From a virus (taxonomy: Duplodnaviria > Heunggongvirae > Uroviricota > Caudoviricetes), in the IMG/VR virus record IMGVR_UViG_3300026367_000039, positions 1 to 4,766 of that record: a stretch of DNA of 4,766 nt. One strand, 5' to 3'. The notes beneath the pieces were generated by a model. It was not told the DNA's origin. It did no database searches and was given only the letters and a program-made list of their open reading frames with translations. Positions 1 to 4,766 of this stretch are shown here, one piece after another; the first letter of the stretch is position 1, and the number at the start of each line of letters is the position of its first letter. The translations under genes were made by a program, and so were the position numbers.

Positions 1-24
1 CAATTTGGTGCGATCATAAAGCCA

Positions 25-53
25 TGAAATTACTCAGAATTGCCTACGATAAT
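25..53 (+). promoter_or_regulatory. candidate promoter for the plus-strand gene pair (weak)
   Basis: Lower-GC leader with a GATAAT -10-like hexamer at 48-53 and a poor -35 (TGAAAT, 25-30) at 17-nt spacing. Speculative. Confidence 0.12.
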
Positions 54-113
54 CAGTGCGCTGGAGCGAATGACATCACACCCAAACGATGCAACTCACC
101 ACGGAGCCACCAC

Positions 114-515
114 ATGACCACGCACGCCATCCTGCCCAGCCGCAACGAGGACCACGGGTTCTTCGGCACCCTGACCGTCTGCCCCCAGCGCGACCGCCGT
201 AGCGCGGAGGTCTGGACGCTCGCATCGACCCTGATTGCCAAAGCCATCCACGCGAACAGCGAGGACGACATGATCGGGATCCGCGACTTCCTCGACAGCT
301 GCATGGGCCGTCAATTCGCCGATGATGTGGTCAGCAACCTGATGGGTTGCAGCCTCGAGCTCGAGACCGCCATCACCTCCGCGATCCGCCGCTGGCAGGA
401 CTGGCGCATCAGCCGCCAGACCCAACGCGACGAGGGCATCCCAGCAGGCCTGCCTTACTTGACCGGCTGGGTGCAGCACTTCGCTGTCGCCGCCGCGATG
501 GCCGAGAGCGAGTGA
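114..515 (+). CDS. hypothetical protein (133 aa from ATG 114; longest ORF begins at 24)
   Basis: Open frame with strong GC3 codon bias through to TGA at 513-515. ATG at 114 is preceded by GGAG (103-106) at 7-nt spacing, whereas the ATG at 24 lies in lower-GC sequence with no Shine-Dalgarno. No family recognised by eye. Confidence 0.5.
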   Translation: MTTHAILPSRNEDHGFFGTLTVCPQRDRRSAEVWTLASTLIAKAIHANSEDDMIGIRDFLDSCMGRQFADDVVSNLMGCSLELETAITSAIRRWQDWRISRQTQRDEGIPAGLPYLTGWVQHFAVAAAMAESE

Positions 516-551
516 TCATCCCCGACATCCCCATCACGACAGGAGGCACCA

Positions 552-1133
552 ATGCCCAAACTCACCGACACCCAGACCATCGTGCTCAGCCGCGCCGCAA
601 CGCGTCCGGGCAATCTTGCGATGCCGCTGCCAGATGGCCTGCACGGCGCCGCCGCCCAGAAGGCCGTGAGCGCGATGATCACGCGCGGCTGGCTGGAAGA
701 GGTCGAAGCCGACCTTCGGCGCGGCGAGCCGCTCTGGCGCGAGACTGGCGATGGTCACGGCACCACGCTGATCGCCACCGAAGCCGGGCTTGCCGCGATC
801 GGGATCGAGCCGGTGGTGGCGACCACGATGAGCAATCTGCGCAAGGCGAAGCTGGAACTGGCCCCGGAGTTGAAAGATGCGTCCGCAGCGCAGACTGATC
901 CTGCCACGCCCAAGCCCGTCGTCCTCCGCGCGGGCACCAAGCAGGCGCAGATCATCGCATTATTGCAGCGCCCCGAGGGCGCATCGATCGGTGAGATCGT
1001 CGCAGCGACCGGTTGGATGGCCCATAGCGCCCGTGGCCTGATCTCGGGCGGCTTGAAAAAGAAGCTGGGACTGCCGATCACTGCCGAGAAAGTCGATCAG
1101 CGCGGCACCGTGTACAAACTGGTTACGGCCTGA
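552..1133 (+). CDS. DUF3489-family protein (putative winged-helix-like DNA-binding protein typical of alphaproteobacterial mobile elements)
   Basis: ATG 552 preceded by a perfect AGGAGG (541-546) at 5-nt spacing. The C-terminal segment TKQAQIIALLQRPEGASIGEIVAATGWMAHSARGLISGGLKKKLGLPI matches my recollection of the DUF3489 signature (LL.R..GAT..EI..ATGW..HS.RG..SG...KK.GL). Strong GC3 bias. Confidence 0.8.
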   Translation: MPKLTDTQTIVLSRAATRPGNLAMPLPDGLHGAAAQKAVSAMITRGWLEEVEADLRRGEPLWRETGDGHGTTLIATEAGLAAIGIEPVVATTMSNLRKAKLELAPELKDASAAQTDPATPKPVVLRAGTKQAQIIALLQRPEGASIGEIVAATGWMAHSARGLISGGLKKKLGLPITAEKVDQRGTVYKLVTA

Positions 1134-1142
1134 TCCCAGCCA

Positions 1143-1355
1143 TTACCGCCAGCGCGCGAACAGTCTGCGCAGCGCGTAGCTGCGCAGCAGGGATATGCCG
1201 ACGAAAACTGCGCCCAGCGCAAGATTGTCACCAAGGCTCGGATGCAGACCGAACCACGGGAACACCACGATCTGCGTGGCGACGGCCAGCACATAGCCCA
1301 GCGCGACATTGCTCGCGGCCTCGATCAGAGACATGCGGCGCGACTGGGCAGTCAT
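1143..1355 (-). CDS. small (70 aa) predicted two-helix membrane protein, translationally coupled to the upstream methyltransferase
   Basis: Start ATG (1355..1353) overlaps the TGA stop of the upstream gene (1354..1352) as ATGA. A strong AGGAGG (reverse complement of 1364-1369) sits 8 nt upstream. Two hydrophobic stretches (ALGYVLAVATQIVVFPWFGL and LALGAVFVGISLL) and a basic C-terminus (RRLFARWR). High GC3. Confidence 0.55.
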   Translation of the reverse strand: MTAQSRRMSLIEAASNVALGYVLAVATQIVVFPWFGLHPSLGDNLALGAVFVGISLLRSYALRRLFARWR

Positions 1356-2725
1356 GCGCGTTTCCTCCTGCGACGCGCCGGGCTCTTGGCCTCAGTTGGT
1401 TCCGCGACACGGTTGGCTGTCCGTCCCGTCGCCAGTTCCCAGCGCCGCACGGCGACGTCGCAGTAAGCGGGGTCCAGTTCCATCGCAAAACACCTCCGCC
1501 CAGCACGTTCGGCGGCCACCAGCTGGGTGCCAGAGCCGCAGAACGGCTCGTAGATCAGGTCGCCCGGATCGGTGAACGCCGTCAGCACTGCTTCAACCAG
1601 CGCCACCGGAAACACTGCGGGATGCGATCCGGCCGCGCCCAGCCCGCCCTTGTGACGCATGATGCGGAACACGCTGTCTGGGATGCGATGACTCTGGATC
1701 GCATTGCCGAAGCCCGTCTTGCGATGGACCGCGCCATCCGCCCCGCGCAAACCCCCACCGCCGAGGATCTCGCCCGCGTGCTTGCTCTCGACCGTCTTGT
1801 GCGGTTTGCGGGGCGCGCGGTTGAAGTGGAAAATGAACTCGTGCGACGGGGCCAGTCGGCCGTTCCAATCGCCCGGCAGGCCGGGCCCCTGATCCCAGAC
1901 ATACCAGCCAAACCGTCGCCAGCCAGATGCGCGCATCCATTCCACCCATCCTTCCCAATAGGGCTGCCATTCGCTGTCGCGATGCACGAGGCCAAGGTTG
2001 ACCAGCAGCTGGGCATCGGCGCAGACCGGTGCGGCAGCGAACACGCCCTGCACCAGCGCATCCCAATCGCCGACCTTTTCCTTGGCCGCGCCGTAGTCGC
2101 GTTGCTGGGCGTAGGGCGGCGAGGTGAACATCAGCGTCGCCGCCTCATTCTGCATCAGCTTGGCGACGGCGGCGGGATCGGTCGCATCGCCACAGCAGAG
2201 CCGGTGCTTGCCCAGCGCCCAGATGTCGCCCGGACGCGTGATAGGTTCAGCGGGCGGTTCGGGGATGGCGTCGGCCGCATCGTCGGAAATCACCGGGCGG
2301 TCGTCGGCGTCTGCCAACAGCGCGTCCAGTTCATCCTCGGGGATCCCGATCAGCCCGAGGTCGAAATCCTCTGCCAGCAGCGCCTGCAATTCCTGCAACA
2401 GCAGCGCTTCGTCCCAGCCGCCCAGCTCGGTTAACTTATTGTCAGCGATGCGATAAGCCCGGCGCTGCGCCTCGGTCAGATGGCCAAGAATGATGACGGG
2501 GGCCTCGGTCAGCCCAAGGTGTGCAGCTGCCAGGACGCGACCGTGGCCTGCGATCAACTCGCCATCAGCCGCGACCAGCACCGGCACGGTCCAACCGAAC
2601 TCGGCCATGCTGGCGGCGATCTTCGCGACCTGATTTGCATCGTGGGTCTTGGCGTTGCGGGCGTAAGGCTTCAGACGGGCAAGGGGCCAGTGCTCGATCC
2701 GGCCCGGCAGGATGGGTGCGTTCAT
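1352..2725 (-). CDS. ParB-like N-terminal domain fused to a beta-class DNA methyltransferase, SPPY variant (possibly N4-cytosine); 457 aa
   Basis: N-terminus MNAPILPGRIEHWPLARLKPYARNAK...DGELIAGHGRVLAAA carries the ParB/Srx-fold G-H-x-R motif. Motif IV is TSPPY, followed by HPAVFP and then the AdoMet motif I EPFCGSGTQ, i.e. beta-class order IV before I. Start placed at ATG 2725 (not the longest-ORF ATG at 2860) because the paralog alignment begins there and it forms an ATGA overlap with the upstream gene's stop. Confidence 0.85.
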   Translation of the reverse strand: MNAPILPGRIEHWPLARLKPYARNAKTHDANQVAKIAASMAEFGWTVPVLVAADGELIAGHGRVLAAAHLGLTEAPVIILGHLTEAQRRAYRIADNKLTELGGWDEALLLQELQALLAEDFDLGLIGIPEDELDALLADADDRPVISDDAADAIPEPPAEPITRPGDIWALGKHRLCCGDATDPAAVAKLMQNEAATLMFTSPPYAQQRDYGAAKEKVGDWDALVQGVFAAAPVCADAQLLVNLGLVHRDSEWQPYWEGWVEWMRASGWRRFGWYVWDQGPGLPGDWNGRLAPSHEFIFHFNRAPRKPHKTVESKHAGEILGGGGLRGADGAVHRKTGFGNAIQSHRIPDSVFRIMRHKGGLGAAGSHPAVFPVALVEAVLTAFTDPGDLIYEPFCGSGTQLVAAERAGRRCFAMELDPAYCDVAVRRWELATGRTANRVAEPTEAKSPARRRRKRA

Positions 2726-3981
2726 GCCGCCAGCCTCTTCGCCTTCAGGTCGGCAAAAGTCTCGCCAGTCTCGACCAGCGCGGCATTGGCGCCGGTGAAC
2801 TGCTGCCAGCGCTCGATGGCGACATCGACGTAAGCCGGGTTCAATTCGATGCCGAAGCACACGCGCCCGGTGGTTTCCGCCGCGATCAGCGTTGTGCCGG
2901 ACCCCATGAAAGGTTCAAACACCGCCTGACCGGGGCTGGAGTTGTTCAGGATCGGCCGGCGCATGCATTCGACCGGCTTTTGCGTGCCGTGCACGGTGGC
3001 AGCGTCCTGATCCTTGCCGGAGATGTGCCACAGCGTGGTCTGTTTCCGGTCCCCGGCCCAGTGGCCCTTGCCGGTCTTCTTCACCGCGTACCAGCAGGGT
3101 TCATGCTGCCAGTGATAGTCGCCCCGGCTGAGAACCAGCCGGTCCTTTGCCCAGATGATCTGCGAGCGCACGTTGAAGCCTGCCGCCACCAGGCTTTCCG
3201 CGACGGTCGCCGCGTGCAGCGCGCCATGCCAGACGTAAGCCACGTCGCCTGGGAACAGCGCCCAAGCCTCGCGCCAATCCGCGCGGTCATCGTTCAGCAC
3301 CTTGCCTATGCGCTTGGTTTTGGCGGCCCCCGCCTGGTTGCGCCAGGATGGGTCATATTCCACGCCATAGGGCGGGTCCGTCACCATCAGCAGAGGGCGA
3401 ATATCGCCCAGCAATCGCCCGACCACATCCGCAGACGTGCTGTCGCCGCAGATCAGCCGGTGCGATCCCAGCTGCCAAAGGTCGCCCACAACCGACACCG
3501 GCGTGACCGGCGGTTCGGGAATGTCATCCTCTCCGTCGGCAGCGCCACCTTCCAACTGGTCCGGGTCGCGCAGCAATGCATCCAGATCCTCGTCGGTGAT
3601 GCCCAGCAGCGACAGGTCGAAATCGTCGGCGAGCAGTCCCGCGATCTCATCGCGCAGCATCGCCTCGTCCCACTCGCCCAGCTCGGTCAATTTGTTGTCC
3701 GCGATCCGGTAGGCGCGGCGCTCTGCCTCGTCGAGATGGCTGAGCCGGATCACCGGCACATCCTTCAGCCCCAGCATGGCGGCCGCCAGCACACGGCCAT
3801 GCCCCGCGATCAGCTCGCCATCGTCGGCCACCATGCAGGGCACTGTCCAGCCGAACTTTGCCATGCTTGCTGCGATCTTGGCAACCTGGTCGGTGCCGTG
3901 GATCTTGGCGTTGCGGGCATAGGGGCGCAGCCGGTCAATCGGCCACGTCTCGATCTGGCTCGGTGCAAAGACCAGGTCCAT
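2722..3981 (-). CDS. ParB-like N-terminal domain fused to a beta-class N6-adenine DNA methyltransferase (CcrM/HinfI-like motifs); 419 aa
   Basis: N-terminus MDLVFAPSQIETWPIDRLRPYARNAK...DGELIAGHGRVLAAA (ParB-like). Motif IV VTDPPYG, then HGTQKP and FEPFMGSGTT, matching the CcrM-type DPPY / TQKP / FxGxGTT pattern in beta-class order. Strong GC3 bias; TGA stop at 2724..2722. Confidence 0.9.
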   Translation of the reverse strand: MDLVFAPSQIETWPIDRLRPYARNAKIHGTDQVAKIAASMAKFGWTVPCMVADDGELIAGHGRVLAAAMLGLKDVPVIRLSHLDEAERRAYRIADNKLTELGEWDEAMLRDEIAGLLADDFDLSLLGITDEDLDALLRDPDQLEGGAADGEDDIPEPPVTPVSVVGDLWQLGSHRLICGDSTSADVVGRLLGDIRPLLMVTDPPYGVEYDPSWRNQAGAAKTKRIGKVLNDDRADWREAWALFPGDVAYVWHGALHAATVAESLVAAGFNVRSQIIWAKDRLVLSRGDYHWQHEPCWYAVKKTGKGHWAGDRKQTTLWHISGKDQDAATVHGTQKPVECMRRPILNNSSPGQAVFEPFMGSGTTLIAAETTGRVCFGIELNPAYVDVAIERWQQFTGANAALVETGETFADLKAKRLAA

Positions 3982-4105
3982 GGGCGGTTCTCATTTGGGC
4001 AGAGCGGGCATGCCAACGGGCGCGGGCAATATGGCCAGCGACAGGATCGGGATCCGCGATGTGGGGGAAAACGAAAGCGCCCGAGAGGGGTGTCATCCGG
4101 GCGCA

Positions 4106-4133
4106 ATTCTTCGATGATTAAGAGGTACGTCAA
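4106..4133 (-). promoter_or_regulatory. candidate sigma70-like promoter for the methyltransferase operon (weak)
   Basis: On the minus strand, TTGACG (reverse complement of 4128-4133), a 16-nt spacer, then AAGAAT (reverse complement of 4106-4111), about 120 nt upstream of ATG 3981. The -10 match is only 4/6, so this is a by-eye guess. Confidence 0.15.
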
Positions 4134-4220
4134 GGGGGCTAGAAATGTCAACCCATTTTATGACGTGGAATCAACGCGTTCTGCGGGTTCGGGGTTTGCG
4201 GGGAAAAGCCGGTGTCGCGA

Positions 4221-4270
4221 GTGGCTTTCCGGGGTGGCTTTCTGGCCAGCGTGGCTACCAAAAAGTGGCT
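4221..4270. repeat. array of four direct GTGGCT(T) repeats (iteron-like or operator-like)
   Basis: GTGGCT at 4221, 4234, 4251 and 4265 (GTGGCTTTCC, GTGGCTTTCT, GTGGCTACCA, GTGGCTTGCC), spaced 13, 17 and 14 bp. About 0.01 occurrences of one oriented hexamer are expected by chance in 50 bp. Confidence 0.6.
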
Positions 4271-4274
4271 TGCC

Positions 4275-4295
4275 TGGATTCCACCGAGGAATCCA
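4275..4295. repeat. perfect 8-bp inverted repeat TGGATTCC-N5-GGAATCCA (candidate dimeric protein-binding site)
   Basis: TGGATTCC (4275-4282) and GGAATCCA (4288-4295) are exact reverse complements around the spacer ACCGA. Each arm contains a GANTC site. It lies immediately after the GTGGCT array. Confidence 0.6.
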
Positions 4296-4351
4296 CTTAG
4301 CCAGAAGGGTGAGACCCTAAGCATTTGATAATGAGTCAAAATTCAGGGTCG

Positions 4352-4397
4352 AGCCACTGGCTTGGCTTCGAAGTGGATTCCCCGGTGAAAAAGCCAC
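4352..4397. repeat. two opposite-orientation copies of the GTGGCT motif flanking TGGCTT repeats and a third TGGATTCC
   Basis: AGCCAC (reverse complement of GTGGCT) at 4352-4357 and 4392-4397; TGGCTT at 4358-4363 and 4363-4368; TGGATTCC again at 4374-4381. Confidence 0.5.
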
Positions 4398-4421
4398 GCG
4401 CTAGCGAAATGCCGCGCTAAG

Positions 4422-4468
4422 CCCCCCCGTATACGGATAGGGCCGGGGAGGAACCATGCTGGGGGGGG
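4422..4468. other. C7 homopolymer, 10-bp perfect palindrome CCGTATACGG, and G8 homopolymer
   Basis: C-tract 4422-4428, palindrome 4427-4436, G-tract 4461-4468. The C and G tracts are complementary and could pair, or could act as slipped-strand tracts. Confidence 0.5.
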
Positions 4469-4486
4469 TCGTGTCGGTTCCGGCCC
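4440..4486. other. GC-rich imperfect hairpin (about 11 bp of stem, 20-nt loop)
   Basis: GGGCCG (4440-4445) pairs with CGGCCC (4481-4486) and GAACC (4451-4455) pairs with GGTTC (4476-4480). No downstream T-tract, so it is not a typical intrinsic terminator. Confidence 0.35.
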
Positions 4487-4535
4487 ATTGCTGCCTTTCG
4501 CCCACCCTCGGTTATGCTGCACTGCGGTCCGCCAT

Positions 4536-4613
4536 TGCGGACTTTCGCTGCAACTGCGAAATATGATGTATAGCGAATTCACAGAGTGCGGACAAAGTTA
4601 GCATTCGCTGCAA
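4536..4613. repeat. two-copy direct repeat module TGCGGAC ... TTCGCTGCAA
   Basis: TGCGGAC at 4536-4542 and 4587-4593; TTCGCTGCAA at 4544-4553 and 4604-4613. The first copy is embedded in the small inverted repeat TTCGC-N7-GCGAA (4544-4560). Confidence 0.5.
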
Positions 4614-4766
4614 GTGCCCCATTGGCTGCTTCGTTGGCGCGAGGGTTCAGTTCTCTGTTACTGTCAAAATCCAGTCTGTAATTTGATCAAGCGAGTGTTT
4701 GGCAAATGCTTTTCGTCCCATCCCCAAATAGATATATTGCAGGTACCAAGGCCATTGAGATGTGAG

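Follow-up and report, generated by a model that had tools for sequence, protein, structure and literature searches.

A compact head-on junction between a DUF3489 cassette and a ParB-methyltransferase operon, with no canonical terminator, in a ParB-Tls region of a Rhodobacterales phage

In phage and prophage genomes, the stretch from a ParB-like gene to the gene for the large terminase has been described as the ParB-Tls locus (Iyer et al. 2013, as cited in PMC6536676 and PMC4738411). The locus has been proposed to modify phage DNA during packaging, and 36 Paracoccus prophage ParB-methyltransferase fusions have been found upstream of terminase genes (PMC6536676, PMC4738411). Convergent gene ends have been studied in other settings: gene pairs that converge without a terminator yield antisense RNA in Rickettsia, an alphaproteobacterium (PMC3027695), and in Escherichia coli a stem-loop is reported to be needed to position head-on collisions of RNA polymerases between convergent genes (bioRxiv 10.1101/2022.10.23.513370). 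Here we describe a locus in which these themes meet, on a stretch of 4,766 nucleotides of a Caudoviricetes virus (IMG/VR record IMGVR_UViG_3300026367_000039, positions 1 to 4,766; the whole stretch is called the window below). Two plus-strand genes, encoding a 133-residue protein (p133) and a DUF3489 protein, run head-on into a minus-strand operon encoding two ParB-type DNA methyltransferases and a DUF7220 protein. As seen through a related contig and further relatives, ParB-like methyltransferases lie on one side of the locus and the large terminase on the other, as in the ParB-Tls locus. The reading that we favour, and hold to be moderately probable, is that the junction is a 3'-to-3' meeting of two transcription units in a ParB-Tls region, and that its tightness is an inherited compact state whose spacing is unselected.

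The DUF3489 gene (552..1133, plus strand) ends in a TGA at 1131-1133 and the DUF7220 gene (1143..1355, minus strand), the last of the methyltransferase operon, ends in a TAA at 1145-1143, leaving a spacer of 9 bp (1134..1142). A first-pass annotation of this DNA had already stated that the two gene sets converge with their stop codons 9 bp apart, and the open reading frame list and the sequence confirm it. Its further statement that no terminator lies between the stops also stands, since a consensus scan found no intrinsic terminator in or adjoining the 1134-1142 gap and the folds of 1085-1200 were no more stable than those of shuffled sequences on both strands (z of -0.19 and +0.41). Likewise, our own scan covered 150 nt from the junction in 22 relatives with tight junctions and found a plus-strand hairpin with a T-tract in none of them. 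On hairpins the annotation was right in part: there is none between the stops, but it missed a strong one that begins 31 nt beyond the plus-strand stop. This palindromic hairpin (1165..1187; CTGCGCAGC-GCGTA-GCTGCGCAG, a perfect 9-bp stem with a 5-nt loop) lies within the 3' coding region of DUF7220, can form in both transcripts and has a T-tract on neither strand. Neither a canonical intrinsic nor a canonical bidirectional terminator was therefore found, the gap holding none and the hairpin lacking both a T-tract and an A-tract. The 9-bp gap is no peculiarity of the window, because the related contig L001 and the related loci L004-L007 have the same spacing, as do 9 of the roughly 68 GTDB loci that could be measured and 18 of the 72 IMG/VR loci. 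Lysogens with the 9-bp junction include Aliiroseovarius sp. S1123 (JALKBE010000004) and Oceaniglobus ichthyenteri (QAGK01000004), whereas Paracoccus yeei CCUG 46822 has a wide one.

The wider context of the junction comes from relatives. The DUF3489 protein of the window is encoded identically on L001, a 20-kb metagenome contig that is 96% identical to the window over window positions 1-2702. On this contig the plus-strand block consists of six genes, for DUF6900, three small open reading frames, p133 and DUF3489, and is transcribed away from a minus-strand packaging and head module with genes for the small terminase (TerS; phrog_57), a GpA-type large terminase (TerL), the portal, an S49 protease, a decoration protein (HDPD) and capsid E. 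A like arrangement was found in Aliiroseovarius, in Oceaniglobus and in one third isolate (genomes L004, L005 and L007), and past the methyltransferase Aliiroseovarius and Oceaniglobus carry an O-like replication initiator, an excisionase-like helix-turn-helix protein and a tyrosine integrase. In L004 and L007 the region adjoins integrase, replication, packaging and head genes without a break; in L005 polysaccharide genes are found instead beyond TerS. Because the related genomes add integrase, replication, terminase and head genes, the window belongs, as judged by gene content, to a temperate Rhodobacterales phage whose head and terminase module is of the lambda type. The mobile-element context suggested in the first-pass annotation was in this way borne out as a prophage, with an integrase, an O-like initiator, TerS and TerL, portal, S49 protease, decoration protein and major capsid protein.

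The head-on synteny is also very constant among relatives. The surveyed loci were picked by their DUF3489 match and the counts refer to relatives with enough flanking sequence. Within this set, TerS/TerL lay on the minus strand to the left of DUF3489 in all 76 testable IMG/VR contigs, a methyltransferase or DUF7220 lay on the minus strand to its right in all 42 testable ones, and the GTDB genomes showed the same gene pattern. TerL is outside the window; in L001 and in the 76 IMG/VR relatives TerS/TerL are located 0.45-3 kb beyond the DUF3489 gene, and the starts of TerS and DUF3489 are 448 to 3035 bp apart. Among the cassette genes DUF3489 is the constant one, and its transcription invariably diverges from that of TerS.

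DUF3489 proteins are numerous, with 4781 database homologues, the closest of which (about 80% identical) occur in Roseovarius, Aliiroseovarius, Oceaniglobus, Marivita and Hyphomonas. Relatives were present in at least 546 IMG/VR viral contigs. Only 103 of 72,556 plasmids carried one, and 97 of these were Ralstonia megaplasmids. In the two plasmids inspected, Roseicitreum pRA03 and one Ralstonia megaplasmid, DUF3489 faces twin methyltransferases, and in pRA03 terminase genes are present too; none of the surveyed loci showed conjugation genes. We rejected the possibility that DUF3489 is cargo of plasmids or of integrative and conjugative elements, given the few plasmid carriers and the DUF3489-methyltransferase synteny kept in those inspected. 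The view that the family is largely confined to alphaproteobacterial plasmids and integrative and conjugative elements, given in the first-pass annotation, is contradicted by this distribution, by the terminase-adjacent position of the gene and by its occurrence in Betaproteobacteria, where relatives of Gp32 of the Acidithiobacillus phage AcaML1 are present, and in AcaML1 itself; a context survey of DUF3489 homologues returned a phage terminase neighbourhood in every relative with enough flank. On these grounds of gene content the element is a phage, not a plasmid or an integrative and conjugative element, and the DUF3489 family extends past Alphaproteobacteria.

AcaML1 (L003, JX507079) has homologues of the window proteins, with 55% identity between MT2 (the methyltransferase at 1352..2725) and Gp24, 44% between MT1 and Gp25, 57% between DUF7220 and Gp26, 40% between p133 and Gp28 and 35% between DUF3489 and Gp32. 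Because its homologues stand in the same head-on configuration, the arrangement is, on this comparison, old. Two details of the AcaML1 record (5434-5913 and 11119-11652) were observed along the way: the gene annotated there as 'gpNu1' (Gp33) looks spurious, with a DUF6900 homologue beneath it on the opposite strand, and the AcaML1 protein that resembles the small terminase of the window family is Gp23, encoded upstream of the methyltransferases.

In contrast to the synteny, the spacing of the junction varies widely. Across 80 GTDB and 80 IMG/VR loci retrieved by tblastn with the window and L001 proteins, 17 of the roughly 68 GTDB loci that could be measured and 36 of the 72 IMG/VR loci had a gap of 6-21 bp, and the remainder one of 53-2457 bp; gaps of 8-10 bp added a few loci to those with exactly 9 bp. 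The wider junctions fall into several states, in which DUF7220 is missing (53 bp), a conserved non-coding insert carries a canonical plus-strand terminator (133-173 bp), an additional small plus-strand open reading frame is present (171-216 bp), a small minus-strand open reading frame is present (290-293 bp) or cargo has accumulated (0.4-2.5 kb). The insert of 133-173 bp ends in AGGACCAGC-TTYG-GCTGGTCCT-TTTTT, a plus-strand terminator with a covarying stem, and is found on the plus strand of L074 (8586-8749), likewise in L099, L110, L127, L140, L145 and L165, and in a shorter form in L152. It is a candidate small RNA or terminator module; an Rfam search with the 165-bp insert of L074 gave sub-threshold matches only (SorY, 27.9 bits against a gathering score of 111). 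The terminator of this insert abuts the DUF7220 stop. Gaps of 16 and 21 bp look like deletion remnants of the small plus-strand open reading frame. Because the junction states range from tight to 2.5 kb of cargo, insertions and deletions have, by this comparison, a hotspot at the point of convergence; the 9-bp gap is one of its states, compact and inherited. A universally conserved tight spacing was ruled out by both surveys, and tight spacing is not required, because about half or more of the relatives hold 133-2457 bp of extra DNA at this place.

The hairpin at 1165-1187 could be an RNA element or a by-product of the codons in which it lies. Its stem consists of two copies of the self-complementary octamer CTGCGCAG, which encode L-R-S and L-R-R and belong to the conserved DUF7220 C-terminus SLLRSYALRRLF. 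Pair counts over the relatives gave no covariation: 84.7% of cells were paired, 212 of 500 shuffles scored equal or higher, a single pair showed change on both sides, in 2 cells, and most changes disrupt the pairing. The hairpin is retained also in relatives with wide junctions. As a selected RNA structure it was rejected, since compensatory changes were not seen and neither the paired fraction nor the covariation score was better than in shuffles. Because covariation is missing, the sequences are related and the hairpin is kept where the junction is wide, we read it as mainly a coding by-product, which may nevertheless pause the polymerase or shield 3' ends.

Both plus-strand products were examined by profile and structure searches. 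The DUF3489 protein (193 residues) belongs to Pfam PF11994, with 83.9 bits against a cutoff of 29.5 over residues 126-189 (E 8e-24), and also matches phrog_10315. Its AlphaFold model (AF2) has two winged-helix-like domains (about residues 6-64 and 129-190) with a disordered linker between them, and a predicted local distance difference test score (pLDDT) of 63 overall and 83-88 in the C-terminal domain. Foldseek matched the domains to MepR/MarR, Fur and Z-alpha winged helices, a profile search against PDB sequences returned nothing significant, and Pfam MarR_2 stayed below threshold at the N-terminus (16.2 against 27 bits), so the resemblance is at fold level only. Published literature on DUF3489 and DUF7220 amounted to a single passing mention. 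From the model, the most likely role of the DUF3489 protein is DNA binding in the packaging and modification region, where it would act with p133 and DUF6900.

The p133 gene (114..515, plus strand; called from the open reading frame list and the sequence, with a GGAG 8 nt upstream of its start) has 695 close homologues, nearly all of 133 residues, in 343 clusters at 50% identity, with the conserved motifs N..WGF.GT, FLDSR.GRHFAD and GIP.GLPYLTG. Profile searches gave no Pfam family and a single PHROG match, phrog_8020, of unknown function, and a p133 profile found nothing significant among PDB sequences. The AlphaFold model (AF2) is all-alpha and confident (pLDDT 94, predicted template modelling score 0.88); Foldseek found no match to it among PDB folds (best E 0.6) and, in BFVD, matches to uncharacterised phage proteins only. 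In some gene calls p133 is fused to DUF6900 (in both orders), to a partial DUF3489 domain or to a Dam-like methyltransferase fragment; some of these fusions may be artefacts of metagenome gene calling. Because of the fusions, and of the co-occurrence of the three proteins from Rhodobacterales to AcaML1, the pattern suggests that DUF6900, p133 and DUF3489 act together.

On the minus strand, MT1 (2722..3981), MT2 (1352..2725) and DUF7220 are linked by ATGA start/stop overlaps. Pfam and PHROG matches identify MT1 and MT2 as fusions of ParB_N with an N6/N4 DNA methyltransferase; Pfam ParB_N is weak in both, and the ParB-like matches to phrog_620/15396 reach E values of 1e-46 to 2e-50. Their N-termini form a 300-nt repeat of 70% identity and their catalytic parts differ. 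In L001 an additional gene for a 167-residue protein (12165-12668) lies between the two methyltransferases. The 70-residue DUF7220 protein belongs to Pfam PF23858 (110.8 bits against a cutoff of 28, E 4e-32) and matches phrog_4276. With two hydrophobic segments and a highly basic C-terminus it is a predicted small membrane protein, and its layout resembles that of a holin or pinholin.

The two units carry separate sets of sequence motifs. Upstream of p133 a putative promoter- or leader-like module (30..113, plus strand; TTGCCTACGATAAT...GAGCGAAT...AAACGATGCAACTCA...GGAG...ATG) was recognised, with a near-palindrome at about 83-96. Its core AAACGATGCAACTCA (with a near-palindromic variant ACGGGTGCATCGC) had 83 plus-strand against 2 minus-strand matches in 81 related loci. 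A variant of the module adjoins TerS ahead of the first cassette gene, and the module stands again directly before p133 (L001 8200-8300 and 9480-9565), and an exact 14-mer of it is repeated in L001 at 8266 and 9534. Because this strand-specific module precedes p133, the p133-DUF3489 pair probably has its own promoter or operator. A consensus scan gave a sigma-70-like match at 24-53; an inspection by eye for -35 and -10 boxes, both in the leader module and between TerS and the cassette, gave no convincing assignment, hence the term promoter-like.

The methyltransferase operon is preceded by a putative control unit (4151-4065, minus strand) that reads TTGACA-N12-TTGACG-N23-hairpin (GCGCCCGG..CGGGCGC, 4104-4077)-TTTCGTTTTCCC. 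Of 84 sources, 49 have this unit with identical spacings on the minus strand and none has it on the plus strand. It has support from folding and alignment, and contains a promoter-like match at 4133-4106. The unit resembles a promoter followed by a close terminator, as in PR'-tR' of lambda, or a terminator overlapping a promoter. If the promoter is read as TTGACG-16 nt-AAGAAT, the predicted start falls inside the 5' arm of the hairpin, and for this reason the hairpin may end transcription that arrives from upstream. Just upstream in L004 lies a gene for a 129-residue protein that matches phrog_1373 ('transcriptional regulator') with a weak HTH_3 domain and matches no Q family.

Further upstream, the roughly 480 bp in front of MT1 (3982-4470), where no gene is called, are 66-89% identical in about 70 loci. 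They include a conserved non-coding block (4200..4470, minus strand) with 8 iteron cores A[GT]CCAC, which occur in both orientations, and a C-run/G-run element; the block has no Rfam match. Homologous blocks, with three GTTTCCAC repeats, stand directly upstream of the TerS-like Gp23 of AcaML1. Because of this position, our leading guess is that 3982-4470 is a cos or pac site or a control region of the packaging operon, the G-run and iteron stretch at 4380-4470 being the candidate cos; an origin is another candidate. The iterons lie within 4200-4420. An Rfam search of the whole window at E values up to 1 gave no match, and neither a tRNA nor a tmRNA was found in it. The rest of the window (4470-4766) has a lower G+C content, is unconserved and holds the last 39 or so codons of an unrelated minus-strand open reading frame that starts outside the window; relatives have a small regulator gene or cargo (toxin-antitoxin, restriction-modification, helicase) at this position.

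In the favoured reading, the 3'-to-3' meeting of two units, the minus-strand unit has its own conserved promoter-like and terminator-like control and comprises two translationally coupled ParB-methyltransferases and DUF7220. The plus-strand pair forms the far end of a small cassette that is inverted relative to both neighbours and transcribed away from TerS, with the second copy of the leader module directly in front of p133. Each transcript would run some way into the opposing gene and be ended by Rho, by encounters between polymerases or by trimming of its 3' end as far as the GC-rich hairpin (1165-1187), and the spacing itself would not be a selected regulatory device. Antisense or collision coupling of the two units, as first envisaged, may occur. 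Several points weigh against this reading. The hairpin exceeds resamplings with synonymous codons in stability in many relatives (-16 to -20.5 against -9.3 ± 3.5 kcal/mol), an excess that is confounded by the shared ancestry of the sequences, and the second arginine of the hairpin stretch (in the LRR motif) is encoded by a rare AGR codon in some 36 of 42 loci and also in AcaML1; the excess and the widely kept rare codon leave room for some nucleotide-level constraint on the hairpin. The 9/10-bp gap is the commonest single junction state, and its commonness could reflect selection instead of shared ancestry. In AcaML1 a TerS-like gene is located upstream and TerL downstream of the inverted cassette, which hints that a long late transcript may cross the cassette and make the head-on layout functionally relevant. 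Lastly, the DNA-binding role of the DUF3489 protein is a prediction from a medium-confidence model and from fold similarity.

The main rival supposes that the unit at 4151-4065 starts a late operon that reads antisense through the methyltransferases and DUF7220 and then through the cassette to TerS/TerL, late expression being controlled either by the DUF3489 protein or by transcription of the cassette from the opposite side. Such a transcript must read through the cassette and therefore requires that the junction be free of a minus-strand terminator, and the gap has no canonical one. The conserved promoter-like box pair followed at fixed spacing by a hairpin and T-tract, as in lambda PR'-tR', the phrog_1373 regulator gene immediately upstream in L004, the position of Gp23 at the head of the AcaML1 methyltransferase operon with TerL beyond the inverted cassette, and the invariable head-on orientation of the cassette to both flanking units would all fit this scheme. 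We nevertheless consider it unlikely, as the predicted transcription start lies inside the 5' arm of the hairpin, a Q-like protein was not identified, TerS may have a promoter of its own in the highly conserved stretch between it and the cassette, our own scan of 114 kb of cassette DNA gave 24 weak terminator-like sites on the minus strand against 3 on the plus strand, and the junction tolerates inserts of up to 2.5 kb. An extension of the same idea, in which DUF6900, p133 and DUF3489 would form an undescribed three-protein DNA-binding module whose head-on placement gates late transcription from the iteron (candidate cos) region, appears to us highly speculative.

A role for the hairpin at 1165-1187 as a bidirectional element that works without a T-tract, placing the end of the cassette transcript some 55 nt downstream of the DUF3489 stop codon and pausing oncoming polymerases so as to terminate them or position their collision, also seems improbable. 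The hairpin is perfect and GC-rich, forms in both transcripts, is kept in many relatives and exceeds the resamplings in stability; in L014, L020 and L021 downstream codons even give a minus-strand hairpin with a T-run, and collisions positioned by a stem-loop have been reported (bioRxiv 10.1101/2022.10.23.513370). However, its pairs do not covary and are simply lost on change, the CTGCGCAG copies are the preferred Leu and Arg codons of the conserved LRS..LRR peptide, A- and T-tracts are missing, and it is kept equally where the junction is wide or has its own terminator. Moreover, we estimate about 0.2 chance hairpins of 9 bp per window of such composition, and in the sense transcript the hairpin is within the translated part, so that ribosomes would normally block its folding. 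It is very improbable, in our view, that the plus-strand cassette is an accessory 'moron' expressed from the prophage (for defence, exclusion or host modulation) and insulated by its orientation alone, which would leave the junction without any role. Its orientation opposite to both flanking phage operons, its own promoter-like modules, the variable content of the 0.45 to 3 kb between TerS and DUF3489 and the gathering of cargo at the distal end of the cassette agree with a moron, but DUF3489 stands beside the terminase in essentially every surveyed relative (the loci having been chosen by their DUF3489 match), and the DUF6900/p133/DUF3489 set is conserved from Rhodobacterales to AcaML1 and linked by fusions, a pattern typical of core functions rather than of morons.

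If the 3'-to-3' meeting of two units is the right reading, the junction is a routine trait of a compact phage genome for which no special explanation is needed. The more interesting material lies around it, in the uncharacterised conserved cassette, the p133 fold and the non-coding control region. The locus also gives an entry point to a very widespread prophage family, whose homologues number thousands and which is present in at least 546 viral contigs and in many genomes of Rhodobacterales, and its candidate cis elements (the iterons, the promoter/terminator unit and the repeated leader module) are testable in cultivable lysogens. Should the cassette prove to control packaging-coupled methylation or late transcription, it would be a new component of ParB-terminase systems.

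Compared with the described systems, the locus is closest to the ParB-Tls locus, with which it shares ParB-domain methyltransferase fusions upstream of the terminase and a region that gathers DNA-modification and variable genes; the descriptions of that locus, in the parts of PMC6536676 and PMC4738411 that deal with it, are without the inverted DUF6900/p133/DUF3489 cassette and without DUF7220. Gp23-Gp34 of AcaML1 share two ParB-methyltransferases and a DUF7220 homologue on one strand, a head-on cassette with DUF6900, Gp32 and Gp28 homologues, then TerL and portal, and a convergent junction that is likewise terminator-less, with Gp27 and Gp26 overlapping by 25 bp. AcaML1 differs in that DUF3489 is first in its cassette and last in that of the window phage, in that the TerS-like Gp23 heads the methyltransferase operon and does not precede TerL, and in protein identities of 34-57% to the window phage. 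As in the PR'-tR'/Q system of lambda, a regulator gene is followed by a promoter-like element, by a hairpin with a T-tract within about 25 nt and by a long operon; unlike in lambda, no Q homologue was found, transcription perhaps starts within the hairpin, iterons lie upstream and the function is here deduced from sequence. Both DUF3489 domains match the MarR/Fur fold over 62-69 residues with a root mean square deviation of 2.4-3.6 Å, whereas the protein is a tandem with a 40-residue disordered linker and the MarR regulators are dimeric. Lastly, the locus recalls the systems of bidirectional or collision termination in having convergent genes with a symmetric stem-loop close to their ends, and differs from them in that the stem-loop, a candidate read from the DNA, is located inside coding sequence and has no flanking A- or T-tracts.

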